This document shows positions 11,914 through 50,257 of a stretch of DNA of 64,000 bases, piece after piece. The number at the start of each line of letters is the position of its first letter. The first letter of the stretch is position 1. Source of the DNA: an uncultured Candidatus Bathyarchaeia archaeon (GTDB lineage: Archaea > Thermoproteota > Bathyarchaeia > 40CM-2-53-6 > DTDX01). The DNA is taken from positions 11,030-75,029 of the forward strand of contig CAZSNM010000001.1 of NCBI GenBank assembly GCA_964608455.1, read 5' to 3'. Below the pieces are notes generated by a model. That model did not search any database, was not told the origin of the DNA, and saw only the letters and a list, made by a program, of their open reading frames with translations. Position numbers and translations under genes: made by a program.

Positions 11914-12134
11914 GCAGCTCTAAAACTAAATCTGAGGAAGCGCCTACACCAGCTGAAGTAACTCAAATTATTGGTAGAACAGGAATAACTGGAGAAGTAA
12001 CCCAAGTTAGAGTTAGAATTCTTGAAGGAAAAGATAAAGGAAGAATATTAACTAGAAACGTTAAAGGTCCAGTAAAACTTGGCGACATTTTAATGCTTAG
12101 AGAAACTGAAAGAGAAGCTAAAAAAATAGCATAA
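11910..12134 (+). CDS. rps28e: Ribosomal protein S28e
   Basis: [41 protein letters not shown] is the S28e signature. Confidence 0.95.
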
Positions 12135-12159
12135 ACCTTTTTTAAAAAAGGGAAAAAAA

Positions 12160-12354
12160 ATGCCTAAAAGTTTTAAATGCTCTTTTTGCGGCAAACCTTT
12201 TCCACCAGCTAGAGGCTTAATGTTTGTTAAAAATGATGGATCAATATTTTATTTTTGCTCTAGAAAATGCAGAAGAAGCTTGCTTGAAATGAAAAGAGAT
12301 TCTAGAAAACTTAAATGGACTATTTATTATGGAAAGAAAGAACGAGGTAAATAA
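12160..12354 (+). CDS. rpl24e: Ribosomal protein L24e
   Basis: CSFCGKPFPPARGLMFVKNDGSIFYFCSRKC is the L24e zinc-ribbon motif. Confidence 0.95.
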   Translation: MPKSFKCSFCGKPFPPARGLMFVKNDGSIFYFCSRKCRRSLLEMKRDSRKLKWTIYYGKKERGK

Positions 12355-12413
12355 CGCTTCATTTTTATCTAAATCTTATGCTTTAAACATATAAAAATAT
12401 TAAGGTGTGTTAA

Positions 12414-14987: not shown

Positions 14988-15163
14988 GCAGCAAAAAGCG
15001 TTTAATAAGCTCGCTTTATGAATATGATTATAAAGAGGGAAAAATAAAATTAAAAAACAAGAAATGCCCTAGATGCGGAAACATAATGGCTCTTCATAAA
15101 AATCCAGTTAAAAGATGGACATGCGGCTCCTGCAATTACACAGAATATATAAAGGAAACCTGA
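14984..15163 (+). CDS. rps27ae: Ribosomal protein S27ae (eS31, ubiquitin-less archaeal form). This gene is absent from the supplied ORF track because it is shorter than 60 aa.
   Basis: Manual translation gives MSSKKRLISSLYEYDYKEGKIKLKNKKCPRCGNIMALHKNPVKRWTCGSCNYTEYIKET*. It has the C4 zinc ribbon and the S27a C-terminal domain pattern. The ATG overlaps the S24e stop (ATGA). Confidence 0.85.
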   Translation: MSSKKRLISSLYEYDYKEGKIKLKNKKCPRCGNIMALHKNPVKRWTCGSCNYTEYIKET

Positions 15164-15508
15164 AGATAAGCTTCATTTTTAGGAAAAATCATGTTTAATT
15201 AAAATTACACATCTATTAAGCATTTTTAGATTTAAAGAAATTGAAGCTTTAGTTAATGTTATTTCACCCATGTTTGATTAATAATAATTTAATATGCTAT
15301 GGTTTTTCTAGGCCCGCCTCCATCTATATAATTTCATTTACAAATTTACAATTGATGAGAATAAATCTATAAGCAAAAGGATTACCTGAGGTTACTGCCT
15401 AAAACTCTGTAAAACCTCTTCATCATAAACCACTACCCGCATCACTTTATATTATTCTATGAAGGAAACAAGGCAAAAATCAAGAGCTTTAATAATGAAG
15501 TCGAGCAA

Positions 15509-40708: not shown

Positions 40709-42050
40709 ACCTTAATGCTTTTCCCTATTTTTGTATAAACTCCTAAGGTTTTTTGAATTTTAAATTCCTCAAATTCTTTATTCTGTTTAGCATCATCATT
40801 AAAAAGTAATAATTTTCCATAAACTCCATCATGACCGCTAACATATTTTATTTCATTATTTCTTATCTTTAATATAACCTCAACTATTCGCTCATTTGTA
40901 ACTTTAATTAACTCATCTTTTGAAGCATTCAATAAAACATTTATTTCATTTTTAAATTTTTTAATTAAGCTCCAATATTCGCTCCATACTGTTTGCGAAT
41001 AAACAATTTAACTTATATACTTTAGCTATTATCTCCATTAAAGGAATAAGATGCTTAAATGGAATATACTCTTTTGGAATAAAACTTTCAGGTCTATCTG
41101 CAAGCTCTTCAACTCTTTGTAAAACACCAATAGTTAATTTTCTTCTGCATTTTGGACAAATATTATTAACTTTTATAGCTTCCTTCGGGTGAAAGCTAAC
41201 ATTGCATTTTCTATGGCCTGAAAAATGATATTTACCTGCTTCCGGAAAAATTTCCCCGGTCATAACAAGTTTTGATTTATCCTTATTTTTTATAGCTTCA
41301 TAAATTTCTTTAAATGAAATTTTATTAACTTTAAAACTGTAAATTCCCTTCCTAATCTTAAAGGGTTGGATGTATGAGAATCTGAAAAAGATACAAGCGT
41401 ATATTTATCAAGCTTACTTATTCTAAAAGCCATTGAAGGATCGCTTGAAAGGCCTGTTTCAAGAGCATAAATATGTTTTGATTTTTCTTGAAAACATTCC
41501 TCAATACTATTAAAACCTGATTTGAAACCTAAAACTCCAAACCATGGTGTAAAATAATGAGCTGGAATTATCAAAATATTTTTTGAAATGCTCATTAAAA
41601 TTTCTACAAATTCCATGCAATTCATTTCATTAAAGGTTGGTCATCCATCAGCTTTTAAATCACCAAACATTTCAAGTTTTTCATTAATTTGATCTACTAT
41701 CTCAAAGTTTTCAGCTAAAATTAAATTATGAACCCTTCTAATTACTCCATTAAATTTATAAATAATTGCATACTTCTGCGGAGAGAATAAATAAACTTCT
41801 CTCCCCCTCTAGTTTTAAAAATTCCTTCCCCATCAACTTCAAAGAGATTAGCTTTTAATTCTTTTAACCATTTTGGATGAGTAAAATCACCAGTTCCAAG
41901 CATATTAATTCCTTTTAATTTAGCATTTTCCTCTAAAATTATTAATTGTAATGTCTTTGCTTGCTGCACGACTAAGAGGAGAGTGAATATGAAGATCAGA
42001 ATAAATTAAACTCAATTCTTCATCAAACCAATTGAACCGCTAAAATTTAA
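40709..42050 (-). pseudogene. Disrupted endonuclease Q-like PHP-domain nuclease gene (frameshifted into at least 4 reading-frame pieces)
   Basis: Minus-strand translation gives ...YSDLHIHSPLSRAASKDIT in one frame, then LEENAKLKGINMLGTGDFTHPKW in another. Further pieces follow: IPAHYFTPWFGV...SDSHT, then a zinc-finger piece NICPKCRRKLTIGVLQRVEEL, then ...SGHDGVYGKLLLF. Together these resemble EndoQ-type proteins broken by frameshifts. No canonical start codon precedes DLHIHS. Confidence 0.5.
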
Positions 42051-42108
42051 AAATAGTATGACTTCAAAAAATATTTTTTGTTTAAAAATAAGGAGGAAAA
42101 AAGTAGAG

Positions 42109-47762: not shown

Positions 47763-47951
47763 ATGTGTAAGTTGGCTAAGTTATCTGAAGAAGAATTAAA
47801 ATTGATTCAAGAGCTTGAAGCAAAATTAAATCATATAGTTTTAATTGCTTATGAGAAACCTCCTGAAATAGCTAAATTAACAAATGAACAACTTGAAAAA
47901 ATTAAGAATTTAGAAAGTCAATTGAAAGTTAAATTAGTAGCTTACAAATAA
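47763..47951 (+). CDS. Small hypothetical coiled-coil protein with an internal tandem repeat
   Basis: 62 aa. The two halves are LSEEELKLIQELEAKLNHIVLIAYEK and LTNEQLEKIKNLESQLKVKLVAYK. Confidence 0.35.
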   Translation: MCKLAKLSEEELKLIQELEAKLNHIVLIAYEKPPEIAKLTNEQLEKIKNLESQLKVKLVAYK

Positions 47952-47991: not shown

Positions 47992-48456
47992 TTAAGTGGA
48001 AAAATTTGCCCATCTATTTAGGTAATCCCATAAATCTTCTTCAGTAATTCCCTCAATTTCTTCAAGAAATTCATAAAGTTGCTTTAAAGAAGTGTGATGT
48101 CTATACTCTTCACCAAGAATTCCCTCTAAAATCAATTTAACATTTTTTTCATCAACTTTTTTTACAAGTTCCTCCATTTTATTAAGCATTTCCTGTTCTT
48201 CGTTTATATGTTTTTCTAAAGCTTCTTTAATTTCGGTTTTTTCTACACTTGAAAATATTTTTCCCTGAATTATGTCTTCTAAGGATTGAAGAATATGAGC
48301 ATGCTTTAATGAATCCATTCTTATAACATCTAAAAGAAGCTTAACCACTTCATTTATTGTTTTATTTATTGTTGAATTTAATTCATTTGCAACTTTAATT
48401 TCTAACGCTTTTTGTTCTCTAAGCATATTTAAAAATTCTTTATCAGAAGTTTTCAT
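47992..48456 (-). CDS. Hypothetical helical protein (154 aa)
   Basis: Intact ORF. A GGAGG sits upstream of the ATG on the minus strand. I recognise no family. Confidence 0.4.
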   Translation of the reverse strand: MKTSDKEFLNMLREQKALEIKVANELNSTINKTINEVVKLLLDVIRMDSLKHAHILQSLEDIIQGKIFSSVEKTEIKEALEKHINEEQEMLNKMEELVKKVDEKNVKLILEGILGEEYRHHTSLKQLYEFLEEIEGITEEDLWDYLNRWANFST

Positions 48457-48478
48457 TTAAATGAAAACCTCCTGAAGA

Positions 48479-48567
48479 GGGGTTCTCCTCATTCTTGCCT
48501 GCGGTTTTGCAGGTCTCAAGATCTAAGGCATTTAAATACCTTCGGGCCAGACCAGTCATAGAACCCC
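48479..48567. ncRNA. Candidate structured RNA element (GC-rich nested stem-loops) between the ilvD 3' end and the 5' end of the 154-aa ORF
   Basis: An 8-bp closing helix pairs GGGGTTCT (48479-48486) with AGAACCCC (48560-67). Inside it is the hairpin CCTGC-GGTTTT-GCAGG (48498-48513) and a C-C-UUCG-G-G tetraloop hairpin (plus strand). It is a GC-rich island in AT-rich DNA. Confidence 0.3.
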
Positions 48568-48604
48568 CAAATTATTTATATATAAATTGAGAATATAAAA
48601 AGAT

Positions 48605-50257
48605 TTAGTTAAGAATAGCTCCTGTATCTGTTGATGAAACAAGTTTAACATATTTCTTTAAATAGCCTTTAAGAATGGGTTTTTCCGGAGGCTTAACATT
48701 TTTTAAGCGTGATGTTAATTCATCATTTGTTAATTCAACTTCAATAATTCTTTTGGAGACATCAATTTTTATTAAATCTCCATTTTTAATAGCTGCTATA
48801 GGGCCTTTTTCAGCTGCTTCTGGAGAAACATGCCCTATGCATAATCCTCTTGTTCCACCTGAAAATCTTCCATCAGTAATAAGAGCAACAGATTCTCCTA
48901 AACCCATTCCTGAAATTGCTGATGTTGGAGCAAGCATTTCTTTCATTCCGGGACCGCCTTTAGGTCCTTCATATCTAATTATTATAGCATCTCCCTTTTC
49001 TATTTCATTGTTAAAAATAGCTTTTATACATTCCTCTTCAGAATTAAAAACTTTAGCTTCCCCCTTAAATGTTAATGTTCTATTTGAAAGCCCAGCAGTT
49101 TTAAGAACACAACCTTTTGGAGCTAAATTCCCCCATAAAATAGCAAGTCCCCCCTCATTAGCTATAGGGTTATTTATTGAGTGAATAACGTTTCTATCTA
49201 AGTTTCTAGCTTCCTTTATGTTTTCAATTAAGGTTTTTCCAGTTACAGTTTTTACGTTTAAATGAAGTTTTTCTTTTAATTCAAGCATTAAAGCAGGTAT
49301 TCCACCAGCATTATTTAAATCCTCCATGTCATGTGGTCCTCCAGGCATCATAGCACATAATTGAGGAGTTTTTTTATTTAATTCATCAAATAGCGATAGC
49401 TCTATTGTTAAATTCAATTCTTTAGCTATAGCAGTTAAATGAAGAACTGTATTTGTTGAACCGCCTAAAGCTGCATCAACAATTATAGCATTTTCAAACG
49501 CTTCCTTATTCATTATATCTGATGGCTTTAAATTTTCATGAATCATTTCTACAATTCTTTCTCCTGATTTCTCTGCAATCCTTAATTTAGCAGAGTTAAC
49601 AGCAGGAGTTGTGCTGCAATAAGGTAAACTCATTCCTAAAGCTTCAGTAAGACAAGCCATAGTGTTTGCAGTGAACATTCCATTGCATGAACCGCATGTT
49701 GGACATGCAATTTCCTCAATTTCATTAAGTTCTTCTAAAGTTATTTCTCCAGAGTTAACCTTTCCTAAAGCTTCAAAAACAGAAATTAAACCAATTTTTT
49801 TTCCTTTATAAATTCCTGAAAGCATTGGTCCTCCAGTTACTACTATTGATGGTATATTGAGTCTAGCTGCAGCCATAAGCATTCCAGGGGTAATTTTATC
49901 ACAATTTGAAATTAAAACTAAACCATCTAATTGATGAGCTTGAACCATTATTTCTATTGAATCGGCTATTAAATCTCTTGATGGAAGAGAATAACGCATT
50001 CCTTCATGACCCATAGCTAATCCATCGCAAACAGCTATTGTATTAAACTCAAATGGTACTCCTCCAGCTGCGGCTATACCAATTTTAACTCTTTCAACTA
50101 TAGTGTTTAAATGGGTATGCCCTGGAACTAAAGATGTAAAACTATTTGCTATACCTATAAAAGGCTTATTCATTTCTTCATTTGTTAAACCTAAAGCTTT
50201 AAGCAAAGCTCTTTGAGGGGCTTTTTGAAAACCCATTTTAATTGCATTGCTCCTCAT
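48605..50257 (-). CDS. ilvD: Dihydroxy-acid dehydratase
   Basis: Fe-S ligand context [15 protein letters not shown]; the 550-aa protein matches IlvD/EDD along its length. Confidence 0.95.

Follow-up and report, generated by a model that had tools for sequence, protein, structure and literature searches.

Introduction

Structured cis-regulatory RNAs have been mapped extensively in bacteria but only very sparsely in archaea, where mRNAs are mostly leaderless or short-leadered and where, to our knowledge, only a few riboswitch classes occur. Riboswitch aptamers closed by a P1 helix, some of them with kink-turns, include SAM-I, lysine, c-di-GMP-II and stem I of the T-box. In archaeal C/D small RNAs (sRNAs), a terminal helix together with a kink-turn defines and protects the RNA ends. 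In AT-rich thermophiles, intergenic islands of high GC content are a classic signature of structured RNAs, and Klein, Misulovin and Eddy reportedly described in 2002 GC-rich non-coding RNAs (ncRNAs) of AT-rich (hyper)thermophilic archaea, to which the Hgc RNAs of Rfam belong. Here we analyse a 64,000-nt stretch of DNA from an uncultured Candidatus Bathyarchaeia archaeon (the whole stretch is referred to below as the window) and describe a GC-rich element between ilvD and an open reading frame (ORF) of 154 aa that is a real, conserved and previously uncatalogued structured RNA.

The principle of the GC-rich intergenic island has been used in the GC-rich intergenic region (GC-IGR) screens of the Breaker laboratory (PMC6429828, PMC8632094). 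Kink-turns bound by L7Ae in archaeal 5′ untranslated regions (5′ UTRs) repress translation, and many ncRNAs are bound by the same protein (Daume et al. 2017, PMC5539422). The standard kink-turn consists of a 3-nt bulge and tandem G:A/A:G pairs between a Watson-Crick C helix and an NC helix, with a −1b:−1n pair that is commonly C:G, and a Watson-Crick 3b:3n pair should prevent ion-induced folding, so that the kink then depends on L7Ae (PMC6298567).

The element shares with the GC-IGR finds and the Hgc RNAs its nature as a GC-rich intergenic island and, with the latter, the setting of an AT-rich genome from a predicted thermophile. Unlike the Hgc RNAs, to which it has no homology (no Rfam match), it appears to lie at the 5′ end of an mRNA and not as a free-standing gene. 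Like the L7Ae-binding leaders (Daume et al. 2017, PMC5539422; Huang et al. 2019, PMC6298567), it sits in what reads as the 5′ UTR of an archaeal mRNA whose start is set by a TATA box and which has a Shine-Dalgarno sequence, and it has a 3-nt bulge, tandem G·A/A·G pairs beside a short Watson-Crick stem and a Watson-Crick 3b:3n pair. In the known L7Ae leaders a small, unstable stem-loop overlaps the ribosome binding site, whereas the motif of the element lies atop a stable 8-bp helix in a 91-nt domain with ~40 further invariant nucleotides, and its downstream gene is not l7ae, nop5 or fibrillarin. The element also differs from the l7ae leaders in its C:G −1b:−1n pair and in that its kink-turn is a candidate only, with a competing fold.

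Results

A GC-rich island under stronger constraint than the gene beside it

The element is a 91-nt island (48478–48568) with 51% GC in DNA of 30% GC. The GC content of the whole window is 29.9%, and the 89 nt picked out in the sequence-only reading, an earlier annotation of this DNA, reach 50.6%, which is within the top 0.01% of all 89-nt windows. No other GC peak of such height lies outside ORFs in the 64 kb, the few others all being intra-ORF. A gap of 22 nt separates the element from the ATG of the 154-aa ORF (48456), and 37 nt separate it from the stop codon of ilvD (48605–48607). The IVYWREL fraction of proteins is linearly related to growth optimum, and the fraction of 0.432 for the proteins of the window predicts an optimum near 70 °C.

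Variants were collected through exact-protein look-ups of homologues of the ORF. Eight distinct variants were obtained (the window copy and loci L004, L007, L018, L021, L010, L016 and L024; alignment A4), all on related Bathyarchaeia contigs and all in the same position and orientation between ilvD and the ferritin-like 154-aa ORF. The window was compared with L016, in which the ORF protein is 61% identical. Nucleotide identity was 76.5% over the element, compared with 64.5% over the ORF and 43.5% at its third codon positions, which points to a stronger nucleotide-level constraint on the element than on the coding gene downstream. The flanking DNA was less similar, with 51% identity in the 60 nt upstream and 36% in the linker to the ATG.

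The variants also support the pairing. P1, the closing helix, shows compensatory changes on both sides at three of its eight pairs (one from G-C to U-A in four of the eight sequences, the other two from U-A to C-G), and the CCUGC/GCAGG stem of P3 shows one such change, U-A to C-G, in L016 and L024. In the proposed structure 95–98% of cells are standard pairs, compared with 35–61% when the 3′ partners are slid by 1–3 columns. Some 40 nucleotides outside the helices, unpaired or bulged, never vary between these genomes, in which synonymous substitution has reached saturation. Variable stems and loops that alternate with invariant junctions form the pattern that characterises a functional RNA, as judged from the alignment. 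A covariance model built from A4 (R1) retrieved 48477–48568 on the minus strand with 110 bits (E = 2e-27) and no second copy in the window, and it found exactly one copy at each element-bearing locus.

The sequence-only reading had proposed a small structured RNA here, and the eight variants, the covariation and the conservation above that of the neighbouring coding gene bear this out over an accident of composition. Its closing helix is present, with GGGGTTCT at 48479–48486 pairing with AGAACCCC at 48560–48567 and one additional G·U pair extending it to 48478/48568, and so is its CCTGC-GGTTTT-GCAGG hairpin, at 48498–48513; as both covary, they are true helices. P1 (RNA positions 1–8 with 84–91) and P3 are the robust helices of the element.

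Several points tell against a structured RNA. The z-score of the minimum free energy, obtained with 200 shuffles per strand, was −1.19 on the plus strand, where 26 of 200 shuffled sequences folded as well, and −1.59 on the minus strand (16 of 200), and the folding energy of the single sequence is indistinguishable from that of shuffles. Eight sequences from one narrow clade give modest statistics, with covariation limited to P1 and one pair of P3, and related sequences can beat shuffle controls without any structure. Folding energy against shuffles and conservation in relatives had both been named beforehand as ways to recognise a chance structure; the element fails the former and passes the latter clearly. 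The energy criterion alone would dismiss it, and its conservation in relatives shows that it is real.

A motif pattern scan of a species-representative genome collection gave no matches, although the pattern works on the fetched loci. The same exact pattern matches loci L010, L011 and L020 in metagenome-assembled genomes (MAGs) from NCBI (GCA_038873515.1, GCA_018396815.1 and GCA_038874395.1), and the clade of the element seems not to be represented in that collection, which limits statements about distribution. Scanning a metagenome contig collection returned three matches, all at the same type of locus, and a viral contig collection returned none. A protein-guided search of the species-representative genomes found one distant homologue of the ORF (46% identity), without the element; distant homologues in other gene contexts (L013–L015, L023, L026 and L027) are likewise without it. 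The distribution so far comprises one clade of thermophilic Bathyarchaeia and one locus.

Architecture of the element

Subtracting an RNA position from 48569 gives the window coordinate, and all of the features below are on the minus strand. The whole element, as delimited by R1 and A4, is a 91-nt RNA (48478–48568). It opens with the 5′ strand of P1, GGGGGUUC (RNA 1–8, 48561–48568), which pairs with 48478–48485, and closes with the 3′ strand, GAACCCCU (RNA 84–91, 48478–48485), which covaries with the 5′ strand, is C-rich and is complementary to the downstream Shine-Dalgarno segment. The bulged strand of a candidate kink-turn follows the 5′ strand of P1 and consists of the loop U9-A10-U11 and then G12, A13, C14 and U15 (48554–48560); AUGACU is invariant in all eight variants, and loop position L1 varies between U and A.

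Junction J1/2, G-N-UCUGGCCCG (RNA 16–26, 48543–48553), is invariant except at position 17 (G, A or C) and is unpaired in both fold models described below, save for a weak 3-bp hairpin in fold B. It leads to the P2 hairpin of fold A, AAGGUAU-UUAA-AUGCCUU (RNA 27–33 with 38–44, 48525–48542), which has a variable loop and in the window copy contains the palindrome TATTTAAATA. The pairs of P2 are kept through G-C to G·U and C-G to U·G changes only, and in L016 and L024 the hairpin has a 3-nt AAC insertion and a different loop while retaining CAU/AUG. The loop region (48528–48541) is a near-perfect palindrome, GGCATTTAAATACC on the plus strand and GGTATTTAAATGCC on the minus strand, that resembles a TATA box inside the RNA. 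Since it is replaced by AACCATCCCAATG in L016 and L024, it is probably not a promoter.

Junction J2/3, AGAU (RNA 45–48, 48521–48524), is invariant except for A45 to G in L024. P3 (48494–48520) is composed of CUUG, an AGA bulge, CCUGC, a loop, GCAGG and CAAG, and includes the hairpin of the sequence-only reading; positions 49–52 pair with 72–75 and 56–60 with 67–71, and the bulge occupies 53–55. Its four basal pairs and the AGA bulge are invariant, and its loop is 4–9 nt long and variable in sequence. Junction J3/1, AAUGAGGA (RNA 76–83, 48486–48493), is invariant in 8/8 variants and holds both the candidate non-bulged kink-turn strand, A80-G81-G82-A83, and a Shine-Dalgarno-like GAGGAG. The invariant or nearly invariant segments are therefore AUGACUG-N-UCUGGCCCG (10–26), AGAU (45–48) and AAUGAGGAG (76–84). 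These conserved junctions, the kink-turn-like motif and the competing interior fold were absent from the sequence-only reading.

Gene callers placed ORFs of 34–38 aa over the element (window 48454–48560, minus strand; L001 1875–1991; L003 2898–3014; L004 2400–2504), overlapping the start of the 154-aa gene. A short upstream ORF encoding a leader peptide from the AUG of AUGAC would account for the ATG-initiated 38-codon frame in the window and for the ORFs called by JGI in L001, L003 and L004. However, the frame and its length are not conserved (8, 12, 19, 19, 24, 33, 34 and 38 aa), which marks the 34–38-aa ORF as a spurious call; moreover, nucleotide blocks past frameshifts and stops are invariant, and indels in the loops are not multiples of three. 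These observations effectively refute a leader peptide.

Putative promoter, strand and predicted transcript start

The minus strand carries both flanking genes. On this strand a TATA box, TTTATAT, lies at 48593–48599, 24–30 nt upstream of the first nucleotide of P1. The heptamer occurs in all eight variants with its 5′ end at −30 to −34 relative to P1, and in the GC-richer L016 and L024 it is the sole TATA-like sequence between ilvD and the ATG of the ORF. We infer that it acts as a promoter and, from its placement and the usual archaeal spacing between TATA box and start, that transcription begins at P1 or a few nucleotides before it. Downstream, no T-run (at least 5 T) between the element and the ATG is conserved across the eight variants. 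The Shine-Dalgarno sequence of the 154-aa ORF, GGAGG, was read at 48468–48472 (minus), and AGGAGG or an equivalent (GGGAG/GGGG) is found 4–17 nt past P1 in all variants; the ATG follows the helix at a distance confined to 17–25 nt.

The upstream side is far looser, as the spacer from the ilvD stop to the element ranges from ~37 to ~190 nt, cannot be aligned and holds the promoter, and that from the stop to the promoter ranges from ~10 to ~160 nt and is equally unalignable. In L016 (2205–2350) and L024 (2195–2350), ~150 extra nucleotides lie between the ilvD stop and the TATA box of the leader. This stretch is 70–80% identical between the two loci, contains repeated TAAAATTTAA and an inverted repeat (GAGCCCC/GGGGCTT), and matched nothing in Rfam.

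A TATA box lies 24–34 nt ahead of P1 in all variants, T-runs beyond the element are not conserved and a Shine-Dalgarno sequence is close by; the element is therefore best read as the 5′ leader of the ORF mRNA on the minus strand. The sequence-only reading had offered a terminator plus 5′-UTR regulatory structure and an independent, possibly plus-strand, antisense-intergenic sRNA as options; the 5′-UTR regulatory structure fits best, given the conserved TATA box before the helix and, in 8/8 variants, the Shine-Dalgarno sequence within about 10 nt after it.

As a transcription terminator or 3′-UTR element of ilvD, the element would lie where expected, downstream of that gene on the same strand, and a bacterial-style terminator scan flags a hairpin and T-run at 48468–48480. 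The flagged hairpin is, however, the pairing between the Shine-Dalgarno sequence and the 3′ strand of P1, which is not conserved, and the distance of 37 to ~190 nt from the stop, unalignable and with a TATA box within it, does not suit such a role. Archaeal termination uses oligo-T, and directly past the ilvD stop stands a T5 run, which is the likelier terminator. We consider an ilvD terminator in the element very improbable. The T5 run (48597–48601, minus) starts 3 nt past the stop codon and overlaps the TATA box of the leader; it is likely the ilvD terminator, and one AT-rich stretch may serve both as that terminator and as the next promoter.

Base pairing barely discriminates between the strands, with 197 of 207 cells paired on the minus strand and 194 of 207 on the plus strand, and to this extent a plus-strand (antisense) sRNA would be nearly as well paired. 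The CC-TTCG-GG motif that the sequence-only reading had taken for a plus-strand tetraloop is indeed present at 48539–48546 and stays UNCG-like (UACG) in L016 and L024, but its stem has only 2 bp and, with no support on the minus strand, it does not hold up as a functional tetraloop. Moreover, the interior G·U pairs (P1 column 3, P2 columns 30 and 34, and P3 column 64) turn into A-C mismatches if read on the plus strand, and the GC-richer relatives have no conserved promoter on that side. The promoter, the gene orientation, the GA/GA kink-turn signature and the relation to the Shine-Dalgarno sequence fit the minus strand only, and an independent plus-strand or antisense sRNA is accordingly a highly improbable reading.

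Alternative folds of the interior

Fold A is a three-way junction in which P2 is combined with a kink-turn signature directly atop P1. The signature comprises C8:G84 (−1b:−1n), the 3-nt bulge N9-A10-U11, G12·A83, A13·G82, C14-G81 and U15-A80, and it is invariant in 8/8 variants except at L1. It matches the published definition of the kink-turn (PMC6298567). By simple arithmetic, a bare GA/GA placement next to a given helix arises by chance at ~1/256 per orientation. On one reading, the P1-proximal junction would be a standard kink-turn of the kind that archaeal L7Ae binds, with a putative kinked geometry. A second kink-turn register, with AUGAGGA as C box and CUGN as D box, was rejected, as L018, with A at N17, is the only variant that it fits.

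Fold B is the RNAalifold consensus, in which C41–A45 pair with U78–G82 (CCUUA with UGAGG) and extend P3, leaving the invariant 5′ segment single-stranded save for a 3-bp hairpin. Nearest-neighbour energies, which cannot score G·A pairs or bound protein, favour the kink-turn-free fold B by 4–9 kcal/mol, and paired cells are slightly more frequent in it (97.6% versus 95.2% in fold A); both results count against the kink-turn. The helices that distinguish the two folds show wobble-compatible single changes only, and covariation on both sides is identical in A and B, so these data cannot separate them. Folds A and B may be real alternative states. In the nearest-neighbour model the folds are marginally stable near 70 °C.

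Comparison with known RNA families

An Rfam 15 scan of the window and seven related loci at gathering thresholds, which included the Moco/Tuco, TPP, fluoride and metal-ion riboswitches and the Hgc RNAs, gave no match. A permissive scan (E up to 10) of three divergent variants, the window copy, L016 and L018, returned matches far below threshold with no plausible common family; the sole recurring one was snoR104, a plant snoRNA model (E = 0.55–2.2), on the opposite strand in the window copy. ARAGORN found no tRNA or tmRNA in the whole window. A cloverleaf of a tRNA or tRNA-Sec with anticodon UUA in the P2 loop, considered by eye, was rejected for want of a T arm and because L016 and L024 do not conserve the loop. 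Hammerhead, C/D, H/ACA and iron-responsive element (IRE) readings also failed against the alignment, where core boxes are missing or loops are variable.

The element resembles the archaeal C/D sRNAs in having, in a thermophilic archaeon, a terminal helix followed by a 5′ AUGA and a 3′ GA (terminal kink-turn). It differs from them in that it has neither a C′/D′ pair nor 12-nt guide spacers and its interior is a structured domain. A box C/D sRNA was rejected because the boxes are AUGACUG and AGGA, not RUGAUGA and CUGA, and there is no correctly spaced C′/D′; cmscan with the C/D families (E up to 10) found none on the element and chance-level matches elsewhere in the region. A box H/ACA sRNA was rejected as well, as no variant has an ACA past P1 (UCUUCAGG, UGUUUUAGG, AAACCAAAGG and others), and H/ACA matches were confined to eukaryotic snoRNA models (E = 0.55–2.5), far below gathering scores. 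An l7ae autoregulatory leader was set aside because the downstream gene is ferritin-like and the 8-bp P1 and a further 4–17 nt come between the motif and the Shine-Dalgarno sequence.

The element could instead yield a stable small RNA or ribonucleoprotein (RNP) that acts in trans. It would be cut or trimmed from the leader or terminated before the ORF, its ends would be protected by P1 and an L7Ae-bound kink-turn, as in the end-protecting architecture of C/D sRNAs, and the invariant ACUGNUCUGGCCCG would serve as a seed or protein platform. The energetically preferred fold B exposes the invariant 5′ segment as a single strand, and many L7Ae-bound ncRNAs exist (PMC5539422). In addition, the element follows the ilvD–moa locus and not the ORF: homologues of the ORF with 68% identity in another gene context (L013–L015) are without it, and orthologues with only 57–61% identity in the ilvD context retain it, so that it tracks the locus rather than the gene. 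However, there is no conserved oligo-T terminator between the element and the ATG, the absence of a separate ORF promoter in L016 and L024 implies that the element is at least co-transcribed, and the Shine-Dalgarno sequence keeps a constrained distance from it. In the 64-kb window, a search for sequences complementary to the invariant junction strands turned up nothing above chance, and the element has neither C/D boxes nor an ACA box past P1. We regard a trans-acting RNA as unlikely.

Another likeness is to P1-closed riboswitches, with which the element shares a putative 5′-UTR position in the gene that it would regulate, the transcription start being deduced from the TATA box, as well as covarying, length-variable stems and invariant junction nucleotides. 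As in riboswitches with a translational expression platform, the 3′ strand of P1 could leave its helix partner and be taken up by pairing with the Shine-Dalgarno sequence. Unlike known riboswitches, the element has no Rfam counterpart, is associated with a single gene at one copy per genome, and has a switching helix that is not formed in all variants. The element is a new family within a known kind, the structured 5′ leader or riboswitch-like element.

A model for translational control

That the element acts in cis as a regulatory leader RNA is, in our assessment, the most likely reading, at about even odds. The specific model that we favour, tentatively, is an ON-type translational switch. 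Transcription from the TATA box would start at or near the first G of P1 and continue into the ORF, and the leader would fold into a P1-closed domain with the P3 hairpin and the conserved junctions. With this domain folded and stabilised by an effector, P1 would retain its C-rich 3′ strand and leave the Shine-Dalgarno sequence, 6–10 nt downstream, accessible; the effector might be L7Ae bound to the kink-turn, a small ligand or an ion bound in the invariant junction, or L7Ae together with one of these. Without such stabilisation, a plausible state near 70 °C, the 3′ strand of P1 would pair with the Shine-Dalgarno segment and mask the ribosome binding site. In the genome of the window this segment, GGAGGUU(U/C), mimics the 5′ strand of P1 (GGGGGUU), so that such pairing would hide the ribosome binding site, and because the domain is predicted to be only marginally stable at ~70 °C, an effector that stabilises the junction could decide access to it.

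The anti-Shine-Dalgarno hairpin was evaluated on the isolated 3′ segment at 37 °C. Its predicted energy was −7.3 kcal/mol in the window, −9.9 kcal/mol in L004, −15.0 kcal/mol in L007 and −5.2 kcal/mol in L010; it is weak in L018 (−4.8 kcal/mol) and has 4 bp and a long loop in L024 (−5.7 kcal/mol). The pairing ranks as strong in the window, L004 and L007 and as moderate at best in L010, L018 and L024. The switch is called into question by the absence of this hairpin from L021 and L016 and by the far greater predicted stability of P1. It is also partly trivial that a C-rich strand should be complementary to a Shine-Dalgarno sequence rich in G, and a single copy per genome means that there is no regulon. 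The locus-bound distribution set out above, in which close homologues of the ORF are without the element and more distant ones keep it, weighs against a regulator of this gene as well.

A passive structural leader would sense nothing; as a GC-rich 5′ domain in a thermophile, it would shield the mRNA from 5′-to-3′ exonucleases or set a constitutive level of translation. P1 begins at the predicted transcription start, and a stable P1 dominates the predicted ensembles with no obvious switch, both of which suit this explanation. A protective hairpin, however, needs no invariant junctions, and the invariance of ~40 unpaired or bulged nucleotides despite saturated synonymous sites indicates a specific interaction. 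We therefore consider a passive leader quite improbable.

Within the cis-regulatory reading, the element could be the aptamer of a new riboswitch class native to thermophilic Bathyarchaeia (TACK archaea). A three-way junction braced by the kink-turn would recognise a metal ion or small molecule connected with the ferritin-like protein, such as Fe/Mn or a signal of oxidative stress, and would free or mask the Shine-Dalgarno sequence. This proposal is possible but on balance doubtful.

The downstream gene and its neighbourhood

The gene whose mRNA would carry the leader is the 154-aa ORF at 47992–48456 (minus, from the ORF list). Its protein has ~40 homologues, in Candidatus Bathyarchaeia MAGs and hot-spring-type metagenomes, some of which are named rubrerythrin and several of which carry PF02915. 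Profile matches of the protein itself to rubrerythrin, symerythrin and encapsulated ferritin (EncB/EncFtn) are weak and sub-threshold. Its AlphaFold model (pLDDT 86) is a helical bundle of 4–5 helices, and a structure search of this model against the PDB gave no significant match. The protein is weakly supported as ferritin-like, which offers a loose hint of metal or oxidative stress as to any effector; with weak profiles and no PDB match, it provides no firm clue to a ligand.

The upstream neighbour of the element, ilvD, occupies 48605–50257 (minus, from the ORF list). Synteny is kept at all element-bearing loci, in the order ilvB (divergent from ilvD), ilvD, the element, the ferritin-like ORF, a 62-aa ORF on the opposite strand, moaC, moaB, moaA and a gene for a replication factor C-type AAA ATPase, which has Rad17/AAA Pfam matches. 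The 62-aa ORF (47763–47951, plus), between the ferritin-like gene and moaC, is 62–67 aa long in all syntenic loci and has no convincing Pfam or NCBIfam match. Elsewhere in the window, three intergenic gaps of ~500 nt (11914–12413, 14988–15508 and 41626–42108) contain no ORF of at least 80 aa, no Rfam family at gathering score and no tRNA.

Discussion

A leader of ~115 nt with a domain more conserved than the gene that it precedes is unusual for archaea. If the element senses a ligand, it would represent a new class of archaeal riboswitch, in a lineage that is uncultured and important ecologically, and would offer a way into the function of a ferritin-like protein that is so far uncharacterised. 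If the element acts through L7Ae, translational control by kink-turns and L7Ae would extend beyond the genes of small ribonucleoproteins (sRNPs) and into a more complex RNA architecture. Either way, the element is a compact, thermostable RNA domain that is directly testable in vitro.

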